From positions 1 to 64,000 of IMG/VR virus record IMGVR_UViG_3300025534_000182: a stretch of 64,000 bases of DNA; one strand, given 5' to 3'. The notes beneath the pieces are model-generated. The model worked only from the letters and a program-made list of their open reading frames with translations. It made no database searches and was not told the DNA's origin. Shown here piece by piece: positions 30,144 through 31,998 of this stretch. Both the position numbers and the translations under genes were made by a program. Position 1 is the stretch's first letter; each line of letters opens with the position of its first letter. The DNA is from a virus.

Positions 30144-30332
30144 TTATTCTTTGTTTTTGTTAATGTAATATGTTTTTACTTCACCAGAAAGATTTTCCCA
30201 ATTTTCTTTCTTTTCATTTGGCAATCTGCAACCATAACGATTCTTGCTAACCTTAGTATTTAGAATATAGTAATCCTCATCGTTATTATAACTACTAATA
30301 CTATAATAAATATTTTGTCTTTTAGTTTTCAT
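30144..30332 (-). CDS. hypothetical protein
   Basis: 62-aa ORF with GGAGGAATG SD. Confidence 0.4.
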   Translation of the reverse strand: MKTKRQNIYYSISSYNNDEDYYILNTKVSKNRYGCRLPNEKKENWENLSGEVKTYYINKNKE

Positions 30333-30517
30333 GATTGCATTCCTCCAGTTGTTTCATAAAAAATTTTCTTACTTCTTTCATATTCATTAACCTTATATAT
30401 CCACTTACATTCCTGTTGTGTGGAGCATCGTATAAGATCGGCGTTCCTTTGAATCCATTAAAATTTTCTTCTTTATCATCCACTAACCAATCAGTATTTA
30501 CAACACTCTTATTCCGA
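30326..30517 (-). pseudogene. C-terminal fragment of a 5'(3')-deoxyribonucleotidase (NT5C/HAD) gene split by IS insertion
   Basis: This frame reads ...WLVDDKEENFNGFKGTPILYDAPHNRNVSGYIRLMNMKEVRKFF..., the typical NT5C C-terminal block, and begins exactly at the IS right end. Confidence 0.45.
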
Positions 30518-30666
30518 TTGACACTCCCCCATACCTAAAGGCGGGGGATTCTTGGATGATTAACGCACTCATGCATTTCTGCTTCGTGCAATCTCCAAGT
30601 TCGTGGCTGTGTCATCAGCCCATCCTACGGCAGAGCATATAGCTCCGTAGGCTGGCAGACTATCGC
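30518..30666 (-). ncRNA. candidate TnpB guide RNA (omega-RNA/reRNA) scaffold derived from the tnpB 3' end and RE
   Basis: GC-rich structured segment (cctacggag...ctgccgtagg, then the terminal hairpin) running from the tnpB stop to the RE boundary. The element layout is as in characterised TnpB systems. Confidence 0.4.
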
Positions 30667-31713
30667 TTACGCTACACCATCTGCCACAGGTTGATTCATG
30701 ATATTGATTGCACCAACCCGATCTCGATGTGCTTTGAATCCACATTGGCATTCATATTTTCGATCATTTGCATGATTTCTGGTTCCACAACAAGGACAAG
30801 TTTGAGAAGTATATGCTGGATTCACATATACAACTTTAATTCCTGCTAAATTAGCTTTATACTCGATAAACTTCTGCAATTGATAGAATGACCAATTATG
30901 CAGATTCTTTGCGTTTTTACGACTTTTTCTTGTCGTTTGGCAAATATTAGCCAAAGATTCAAGTTTAATTACAGATACATTTTCTTGAATAGCAAAATTT
31001 ACAATTTGACGACTAATTTTATGGTTTTGATCTGTCATCCATCTACTTTCTTTGTTTCCTAGTTTCTTTATAGCGTGTAACTTTTTAAGTTTCCCCAACT
31101 TCTTTCTACGTGATTGGTATTTGCGACGAATATATTTTATTTGTCTTCCATTACCAAAGAATCTGGTTTTTCCTGTTGATGTTACAGCAACAGCGGGATT
31201 TTTTAATCCAAGATCAATTCCCATGATATTTTCGCCTGTTGATTTTTCTTCAGGAATTTGAACAGAAACCTGGGCGTACCATTTACCCGATTTCTCTACA
31301 ATACGCATTAATCCAAGTTTTGATTTTTTGATTAATTCCATGTCTCGTTCAGTTGGTATGGCGTGGAAGTACGTTTTCTTTACTTTCCCTTCAACAACAA
31401 TTGGAAATGCGATTGCGTTGTTTAAAATTGTATAGTTTTGATTATTGATATAATATACTGGCTTTTTGAGTATTGAACGTTTTCCTGTTTTCTTGTATTT
31501 TGCAAATACGCTTCTTGCATCACGAATGGCTTGATTACATATAGCAGATGGAAGAATAGTTTTAATATCTTTTGTTGTTATTTTAGGAAATGATTTTTGT
31601 TGTATCGCATGTTCTGTTAATTGATTTATTGTACTGATATACTCTTGGGAAAGTCGTCTTAAAATGTTAGGATTATCTGGAAAAAATCTAATTTTAACAG
31701 TTAATGATTGCAA
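30667..31713 (-). CDS. tnpB: TnpB (IS605 OrfB family RuvC-like RNA-guided nuclease)
   Basis: RuvC-I IMGIDLGLKN, RuvC-II VIKLESL, zinc finger CPCCG...CQCG, RuvC-III AHRDRVGAINI. Confidence 0.85.
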   Translation of the reverse strand: MQSLTVKIRFFPDNPNILRRLSQEYISTINQLTEHAIQQKSFPKITTKDIKTILPSAICNQAIRDARSVFAKYKKTGKRSILKKPVYYINNQNYTILNNAIAFPIVVEGKVKKTYFHAIPTERDMELIKKSKLGLMRIVEKSGKWYAQVSVQIPEEKSTGENIMGIDLGLKNPAVAVTSTGKTRFFGNGRQIKYIRRKYQSRRKKLGKLKKLHAIKKLGNKESRWMTDQNHKISRQIVNFAIQENVSVIKLESLANICQTTRKSRKNAKNLHNWSFYQLQKFIEYKANLAGIKVVYVNPAYTSQTCPCCGTRNHANDRKYECQCGFKAHRDRVGAINIMNQPVADGVA

Positions 31714-31833
31714 TTTTAATATTTACACCTCCCCTTTTTACCTTTAATTATATATAATTTACTTTTTATTTTCAATATTTACCACCATTCATTCCCATGC
31801 CTAAAGGCAGGGGCTTTCTGGTGGTGTGTGATT

Positions 31834-31998
31834 GTAAATTTTTTTGCCGCATTCTGGTTTAACTAAATTATGCCAATTCCAGTTTTTTATGTCTTCTGGT
31901 CTTAGATTGTCGTTGTATTCAGTGTTGTATCTGCTCACCCATTCAGTAAGCAAATCAGCCAATACCTGATCTTGGTCGAAAGCAATGCGTTTTTTCAT
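31834..31998 (-). pseudogene. N-terminal fragment of the NT5C-like 5'-deoxyribonucleotidase (MKKRIAFDQDQVLADL...) truncated by the IS
   Basis: HAD motif I DQDQV. The ORF continues into the IS left end, where ...KIYNHTPPESPCL* is IS-encoded. Confidence 0.5.

Follow-up and report, generated by a model that had tools for sequence, protein, structure and literature searches.

A tnpB-only IS200/IS605 element with a candidate guide-RNA scaffold in an internally deleted deoxyribonucleotidase gene of a phage genome

We analysed 64,000 nt of viral DNA, comprising positions 1 to 64,000 of the IMG/VR record IMGVR_UViG_3300025534_000182 (hereafter the window, by which we mean this whole stretch), and describe here a 1316-bp element on its minus strand at 30518..31833. 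Taken as a whole, the region is very probably best explained as a non-autonomous IS200/IS605 element with IS608-type ends, which carries tnpB only and is situated in an NT5C gene, encoding a 5'(3')-deoxyribonucleotidase, from which 194 nt are missing. The element displays every structural feature of the IS200/IS605 family except a TnpA transposase of its own; no tnpA occurs between 30518 and 31833, hence its description as non-autonomous, and the tnpB-only organisation is what ISfinder calls IS1341-like. An original prediction, made from the sequence alone, had also recognised a TnpB-only IS200/IS605 element with IS608-type TTAC and TCAA ends, and our comparison of five insertion sites supports this. 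The same prediction had supposed a simple insertion into an otherwise whole gene, which is not the case, since an intact homologous protein shows that 65 residues have been lost and that the element sits at a deletion, apparently of 194 nt. In itself, the element is well formed and an ordinary member of a well-known transposon family, and TnpB is common in phages, with homologues in 386 deposited phage records. Its added interest lies in what appears to be a deletion reaching from one TTAC tetranucleotide to another, in the single-hairpin mini-elements found in the same genome, and in a possible signature of homing from phage to phage.

The element, its TnpB and the candidate guide-RNA scaffold

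The boundaries of the element were derived from five insertion sites and 35 distinct right ends. A search of viral contigs with the TnpB protein returned six loci, one being the same insertion in a sister phage (on a contig classed as viral by IMG/VR) and the other five, with 80–86% TnpB identity, representing four unrelated sites, as two of these loci (L006 and L009, identical over 7 kb) are one site. At all five phage sites TTAC precedes the left end and homology starts immediately after it; homology ends directly after GAGTGTCAA, beyond which the flanks are unrelated. A further 52 loci were found in Paenibacillus, Cohnella and Brevibacillus genomes, several per genome and mostly with 57–81% protein identity, and in many of the Paenibacillaceae relatives a tnpA gene immediately precedes tnpB. 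Across the phage and Paenibacillaceae copies, TCAA followed by unrelated DNA marks 35 of 35 distinct right ends, while 13 of 15 distinct TnpB-only left ends have TTAC 18–19 nt from the hairpin foot (20 nt in the window copy) and AAAG beside the foot. The boundaries 30518..31833 had been drawn correctly in the original prediction, as had every other coordinate it listed, and copies at the four other insertion sites agree with them. These four viral sites and the 52 Paenibacillaceae loci demonstrate the mobility of the family, and relate to the family rather than to this copy. Nucleotide searches of deposited phage genomes, both with the region and with the element, produced no match.

Read on the minus strand, TTAC at 31837..31834 directly adjoins the left end, where it had been expected; it lies within Ile-Tyr codons of the interrupted gene and is the left cleavage and target tetranucleotide, as well as the predicted transposon-associated motif (TAM) of TnpB. 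The left end itself (31794..31833, minus strand) comprises a 16-nt spacer and AAAG at 31817..31814 (together AATCACACACCACCAG-AAAG), the latter placed where IS608 has its left guide sequence, and then an imperfect hairpin at 31813..31794 (CCCCTGCCTTTAGGCATGGG). This hairpin is enclosed by an outer stem, CCACCA/TGGTGG, which covaries across copies (CCGTCA/TGACGG, CCACAA/TTGTGG). At the right end, a second hairpin (30547..30526, minus strand; CCCCCGCCTTTAGGTATGGGGG) is followed by AGTGTCAA, so that the element terminates in the TCAA of the original prediction at 30518. It is preceded by GAAT (30551..30548), which is invariant in a 22-sequence alignment and is the right guide sequence in IS608. 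The two subterminal hairpins, both present as predicted, are 82% identical to each other as direct repeats and their stems covary across copies. The hairpin motif (at most three mismatches) is not a product of chance, because it matched five times in the window and never in 100 shuffles. Neither terminal inverted repeats nor a target duplication are found in the element.

Within these ends, tnpB (30667..31713, minus strand) has a TTG start and encodes a protein of 348 aa. Upstream of it is a promoter-like site, TTGAAA-17-TATAAT (31747..31775, minus strand), which is the best match in the region, with 11 of 12 consensus positions, and is a consensus match only; a ribosome-binding site, GGGGAGGTG, lies between this site and tnpB. 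Pfam matched the protein to OrfB_IS605 (PF01385) and Cas12f1-like_TNB (PF07282), the NCBIfam TnpB model NF040570 scored 218 bits against a cut-off of 100, and TnpB/Cas12f chains in the PDB matched at E = 1e-24 over the C-terminal ~200 residues. The RuvC residues D167, E252 and D331 and the zinc-finger cysteines C306, C309, C322 and C324 are all intact. When aligned with ten relatives and the second TnpB of the window, E252, D331 and the four cysteines are invariant and D167 is absent from one copy only, which carries a deletion; the second cysteine pair is CxC, not CxxC. Domain models and conserved residues therefore agree with the earlier view of an intact 348-aa TnpB with three RuvC motifs and a zinc finger.

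The 3' stretch of the element is rich in G+C, as had been remarked (52%, against 31% for the window), and forms a candidate guide-RNA (omega or right-end RNA) scaffold of ~172 nt at 30518..30689 (minus strand), with five main helices, the last of which is the right-end hairpin. This structure was evaluated on the alignment of 22 sequences (the window, four phage copies and 17 bacterial), extending from ~20 nt before the tnpB stop to the right-end boundary. RNAalifold gave 43 pairs, 21 of them with compensatory double changes, and 97.6% of cells are paired on the structure, values reached by none of 500 shuffles; after the pairing partners were slid by 1–3 columns, covarying pairs numbered seven at most. 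The window sequence alone had a minimum free energy z-score of −3.9. Several pairs alternate between A-U, G-U and G-C, and G-U pairs are many, so the structure is specific to the tnpB sense strand. Folding of the right-end segment had been proposed as a check, and what it returned was a conserved structure without equal among the shuffles. The predicted scaffold thus holds as a structure, but not in its starting point, which had been placed at the tnpB stop: it begins inside the reading frame at 30689 and overlaps the final ~20 nt of tnpB.

This is the position, at the 3' end of tnpB and the right end, in which a TnpB guide RNA is expected (PMC8612924, PMC10055086). On the TnpB model from the same work (PMC8612924, PMC10055086), the guide template would be the flank just past the right end, TCGGAATAAGAGTGTTGTAA (30498..30517, minus strand), which coincides with the first bases of the C-terminal NT5C remnant described below, and the guide would be TCGGAATAAGAGTGTT.... 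The scaffold would presumably be expressed and used in this form. No other site in the window combines TTAC with a guide-like sequence (at most four mismatches). Protein and RNA have the sequence features of TnpB (OMEGA) systems, from which RNA-guided, TAM-dependent cleavage is predicted, and the combination of a compact 348-aa TnpB, a candidate TTAC TAM and a guide scaffold supported by covariation is one reason for attention to this element.

The deoxyribonucleotidase gene and its missing segment

Both flanks of the element are fragments of an NT5C gene. The N-terminal remnant (31834..31998, minus strand) comprises codons 1–55, MKKRIAFDQDQV...GKKIY, ends in ATT TAC, and matches positions 4–57 of the Pfam NT5C profile (PF06941; E = 5e-15); the open reading frame as called continues for 10 codons into the element and then stops. 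The C-terminal remnant (30322..30517, minus strand) consists of a T followed by the codons RNKSVVNTDWLVDDKEEN...HEN*, and matches positions 123–174 of the 180 positions in the same profile (E = 6e-8). Hence, the original description of the flanks as two halves of an NT5C gene is upheld as to their identity and fails as to their sum, since the two do not add up to a whole gene. The right flank begins TCGGAATAAGAGTGTTG..., that is, with a lone T, which is the third base of a Thr codon, and then CGG AAT AAG (Arg-Asn-Lys), and with the element taken out the reading frames of the two remnants are offset by one base. Deletion in silico of exactly 30518..31833, which had been suggested as a test for one continuous reading frame, did not restore it, giving instead ...KKIYSE* and more stops thereafter; this is an outcome that the original prediction had itself named as refuting it, and it does so for the idea of a simple insertion.

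A protein search with the joined flanks identified P0001, an intact NT5C protein of 183 aa from a JGI metagenome. Residues 1–55 of P0001 are identical to those encoded in the window (55/55) and residues 121–182 are 89% identical, while residues 56–120 (NYLDDP...NYVFT, 65 aa), which include the central HAD fold, have no counterpart in the window. A continuous NT5C domain of ~180 residues is accordingly not found here, its central part, which lies between the DxD motif and the C-terminal DD motif, being gone. In all three distinct intact homologues whose DNA was compared, Val-Phe-Thr is encoded by GTA/GTG TTT AC(A/T), with TTAC ending there. The intact allele is thus predicted to possess a second TTAC at its Val-Phe-Thr codons (GTA TTT AC|T), and in the 962-bp contig that encodes P0001 we would expect TTAC directly before TCGGAATAAG. 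On this basis the missing segment appears to consist of 64 codons and 2 nt, or 194 nt, from just after the first TTAC to the end of the second. Loss of 64 codons and 2 nt accounts for the one-base frame shift between the remnants and, with 194 nt gone from the gene, excision of the element cannot restore it. The inactivation of NT5C inferred in the original prediction is therefore borne out, with the remnants out of frame and residues 56–120 gone, and it is irreversible; the gene call should be corrected from a split deoxynucleotidase gene to a dead remnant.

A simple and reversible insertion, by which the element would split a complete NT5C gene that precise excision restores, agrees with flanks that are NT5C fragments in the same orientation, and removal of 1317 nt, one base more than the element, does leave an open fusion of 118 codons. 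However, the boundary implied by that in-frame fusion contradicts the five compared insertion sites, exact excision leads straight to the stop in KKIYSE*, and flanks covering only profile positions 4–57 and 123–174 leave no place for the 65 further residues that P0001 has between them, so that we regard this explanation as very improbable. Less credible still is an IStron-like arrangement, in which a group I intron fused to the insertion sequence would splice out and rescue the gene. IStrons, which are found in Firmicutes of low G+C, derive from IS200/IS605 elements and have a tnpB gene (PMC10690162), but there are only 120 nt between the left end and tnpB, Rfam detected no group I intron in 30200..32100 at E up to 10, and splicing would have no power to restore 65 missing codons. 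It was on the Rfam result that this candidate was dropped.

A search for an uninterrupted gene had been another of the checks first suggested; the intact metagenome protein P0001 was found, and deposited phage genomes were without a nucleotide match. Protein-guided scans of metagenome and viral contigs for DNA of the intact allele found nothing new, and an exact search of metagenome and viral contig collections for the predicted empty site, TTTACTCGGAATAAGAGTGTTG, gave no match. Relatives of the neighbouring thymidylate kinase led to a single sister phage, which shares the insertion, and to two phages without an adjacent NT5C gene, and so shed no light on the intact allele.

As to the history of the deletion, the most likely order is insertion at the second TTAC, whose downstream sequence would remain as the right flank, followed by loss of the 194-nt interval to the left, back to the first TTAC. 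By a transposase route, the left guide sequence would pair with any TTAC, allowing TnpA to cut both at the upstream TTAC and at the junction of TTAC with the left end; strand exchange would then leave the upstream TTAC joined directly to the left end, the 194 nt being set free as a circle. By a slippage route, both sites would read ATTTAC followed by AAT, provided that Asn56 is encoded by AAT, and slippage between these 9-nt repeats would lead to an identical outcome. The element may instead have inserted at the first TTAC, with a deletion on its right side, but no microhomology supports this order. The deletion of the 194-nt interval may represent TnpA-catalysed strand exchange between two TTAC sites, a side reaction for which we found no description in the IS200/IS605 family; a search of the IS608 replication-fork paper turned up no TnpA-mediated adjacent deletions.

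The wider surroundings of the gene have a nucleotide-metabolism theme, evident in genes at 5721..6095, 28586..29371 and 31995..32597 (all minus strand), among them a thymidylate kinase recognised by Pfam, an NrdI-like open reading frame recognised by eye, and an open reading frame of 261 aa with a DFDKT motif, for which Pfam gave no match. The closest isolates are the Bacillus subtilis phages vB_BsuS-Goe11, Goe12 and Goe14, with 68% identity for an AAA_24 protein.

Relatives in the phage genome and proposed movement of the element

Four right-end-type termini, all on the minus strand, are present in the window; these belong to the element described above, to a complete element and to two mini-elements. 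The complete IS200/IS605 element occupies ~52376..54080 (minus strand), where its left boundary, at TTAT in 54084..54081, is a guess. It includes tnpA, encoding a Y1 transposase (Y1_Tnp; 53564..53977, minus strand), and a second tnpB (52476..53558, minus strand), the 360-aa product of which has an HTH domain, scores 559 bits with NCBIfam IS200_TnpB and is only 26% identical to the 348-aa TnpB. The right end of the complete element is 92% identical to the last 38 nt of the tnpB-only element, and because the two are nearly identical here, it is the obvious candidate for a source of TnpA in trans. Mobilisation of the tnpB-only element by this TnpA is plausible.

We envisage that the tnpB-only element moves as single-stranded DNA. 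Y1 TnpA acting in trans would bind both subterminal hairpins and cut 3' of TTAC on the left and 3' of TCAA on the right, whereupon the element would re-insert 3' of another TTAC. TnpB would be carried as cargo, a RuvC nuclease operating with the ~172-nt RNA scaffold, whose transcript would continue past the right end to take in the flank. This complex should cut DNA in which TTAC is followed by the guide sequence, which could be either the empty site after excision or the uninterrupted allele in a co-infecting phage, and repair from the occupied copy would put the element back.

The first mini-element is 49 nt long (6682..6730, minus strand) and reads TTAC|AATCACACACCACCAGAAAG, hairpin, right-end tail AGTGTCAA, which is to say the 5' part of a left end joined to one hairpin and the tail of a right end. 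The same 49 nt are found at a different site in the sister phage (L071 2667..2720), and the window at ~22086/22087 provides the exact empty site for that copy, TTTTTAC|AATCACAAGGG. Filled and empty sites differ by exactly the element, with no target duplication. This mini-element is either mobile in itself or the product of a repeated collapse of full copies, the hairpins of which are nearly identical, from one hairpin to the other. The right flank of the empty site opens with AATCAC, the first 6 nt of the mini-element itself, and the copy at 6682..6730 has 9 nt of left flank in common with the NT5C copy of the larger element (AAAATTTAC). No long reading frame was restored when the mini-element at 6682..6730 was removed. 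The second single-hairpin mini-element, of 46 nt (42093..42138, minus strand; TTAC|GATCAACCGCCAGAAAG-CCCATGTCTTAATACATGTGG-AGTGTCAA), has another hairpin sequence, yet the pairing and the bulged T are kept.

The sister phage possesses a second tnpB-only copy (L005; IMGVR_UViG_3300033802_000220, 51071-58111) with 86% TnpB identity, whose flanks are absent from the window, so that the window offers no empty site for it. In a contig of 10.9 kb (L070, JGI 3300033752), the left flank of NT5C is followed by ~891 nt from the start of the element, and what comes next is of the L005 type, comprising ~410 nt from the end of that copy together with its right flank; there is a single crossover near element position 892. 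Either an assembly chimera or recombination between two directly repeated copies, separated by ~47 kb, accounts for this contig.

Several observations weigh against the reading of the region as a trans-mobilised element beside a TTAC-to-TTAC deletion. The left hairpin of the complete element is preceded by AAAA, not AAAG, and its left-end region differs, which leaves trans-mobilisation by this TnpA plausible and unproven. Rfam contains no family matching the scaffold RNA. The second TTAC is deduced from homologues that are 72–75% identical and from the leftover T. Furthermore, the same insertion is fixed in four samples, and this copy may therefore no longer move. The occurrence of the same site and deletion in those four samples would also suit an immobile fossil, a fixed relic that neither moves nor cuts and is tolerated by the phage, as would the lack of tnpA inside the element and a gene that cannot be restored, leaving no selection for excision. 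On the other hand, the reading frame, the catalytic residues and the RNA helices are intact, the window and its sister differ by a single base in the 1047 nt of tnpB, and relatives with 80–86% identity occupy other sites in other phages, while the second copy and the mini-elements, at sites that differ between the sister phages, indicate recent activity of the family. We consequently judge a fossil to be improbable, and retain the reading of a non-autonomous element that would move with TnpA supplied in trans.

Possible homing between phages and comparison with known systems

The interrupted allele occurs with identical junctions on contigs from four samples. The window and the sister phage (L001) differ by ~0.1% over a stretch that starts at the SLT gene, spans the element and extends to 75 nt past its right end; at window position 30442, 76 nt past the right end, divergence jumps to 4–8% and stays at that level for at least 4.5 kb. 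This step marks a mosaic boundary at the element. The loci L006 and L009, being identical, offer no second test of such a step. Within the first 75 nt past the right end are two marker positions at which the window and the sister phage encode Thr and Asn, against Ala and His in P0001; Ala also stands at the first marker in the three other intact homologues. Farther downstream, the sister phage matches P0001 rather than the window.

RNA-guided homing between co-infecting phages is a possible, if doubtful, explanation of these data. TnpB with its flank-derived guide would cut an uninterrupted NT5C gene next to the second TTAC, and repair from the occupied genome would copy across the element, the 194-nt deletion and a short right flank. 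In its favour, the intact allele still exists in nature in the form of P0001, alongside the interrupted allele of the four samples, and the divergence step, together with the Thr/Asn markers common to window and sister and the return of the sister to P0001 farther on, is the expected trace of co-conversion after a break near the right end. Against it, the case involves one breakpoint in one pairwise comparison, and phage genomes are mosaic in any case; the amino-acid markers number only two, and come from an intact allele known as protein alone; and ordinary recombination at or near a repeated element looks alike. The bolder proposition of a gene drive between phages, by which TnpB and its guide would cut alleles that have TTAC and TCGGAATAAGAGTGTT and repair would copy the element, the deletion and ~60–76 nt of right flank, is unlikely, and somewhat more so than homing as such; it would explain the sharp divergence step beside the right end. 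The mini-elements and the divergence step are compatible with homing from phage to phage driven by TnpB, without being proof of it.

A recent review (PMC13565253) discusses homing into plasmids and lists "non-restorative homing" into co-infecting phages, which the divergence pattern fits, as theoretical. A single phage lineage here combines an autonomous element, a tnpB-only element, two mini-elements and a recombination boundary beside the right end, with an intact allele still in circulation, and so presents a natural system in which to test TnpB homing between viruses, a process that has been demonstrated for plasmids, whereas for phages it is as yet a proposal.

The ends of the element are most readily compared with those of IS608 of Helicobacter pylori, in which TTAC lies 19 nt 5' of the left hairpin, TCAA lies 3' of the right hairpin, and the left guide sequence is AAAG (PMC3201880). 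Both elements insert 3' of TTAC, finish at the right end after TCAA, have imperfect hairpins with a bulged T and AAAG 5' of the left hairpin, and are without inverted repeats or target duplication, while the distance from TTAC to the hairpin foot is 18–20 nt here against 19 nt. Unlike IS608, which carries both tnpA and tnpB and resides in a bacterial chromosome, the element described here has tnpB only and a phage host, and its TnpB lacks the HTH_OrfB_IS605 Pfam domain and scores 69 bits against the NCBIfam IS200_TnpB cut-off of 425.

TnpB of ISDra2 recognises the TAM TTGAT, whereas TTAC is predicted here, and there is no close sequence relationship between the two proteins. The systems are nevertheless alike in that the scaffold derives from the 3' end of tnpB and the right end, the guide (as predicted here) from the flank, and the TAM (again as predicted) is the left cleavage motif (Karvelis et al., PMC8612924).

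In its range of members, the family resembles that of Geobacillus stearothermophilus, which includes an element with tnpA, tnpB-only elements and protein-less, PATE-like mini-elements (Meers et al., PMC10055086), and in which TnpB is a homing nuclease acting on the empty site (PMC10055086). Both have similar ends, mini-elements and a guide RNA, a candidate one here, that extends into the 3' end of tnpB; the phage family differs in that all its members occur in one phage genome, in its predicted TAM of TTAC, and in mini-elements with a single hairpin. Finally, there is a resemblance in mode of action, and not in family, to the free-standing homing endonucleases SegF and Mob of T-even phages, which carry out intronless homing, cutting the rival allele and bringing about co-conversion of flanking markers (PMC13565253); the step in divergence at 76 nt past the right end agrees with co-conversion of the T-even style. 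Unlike that of SegF and Mob, recognition here would be RNA-guided, and it is the presence of the transposon that would set self apart from non-self.

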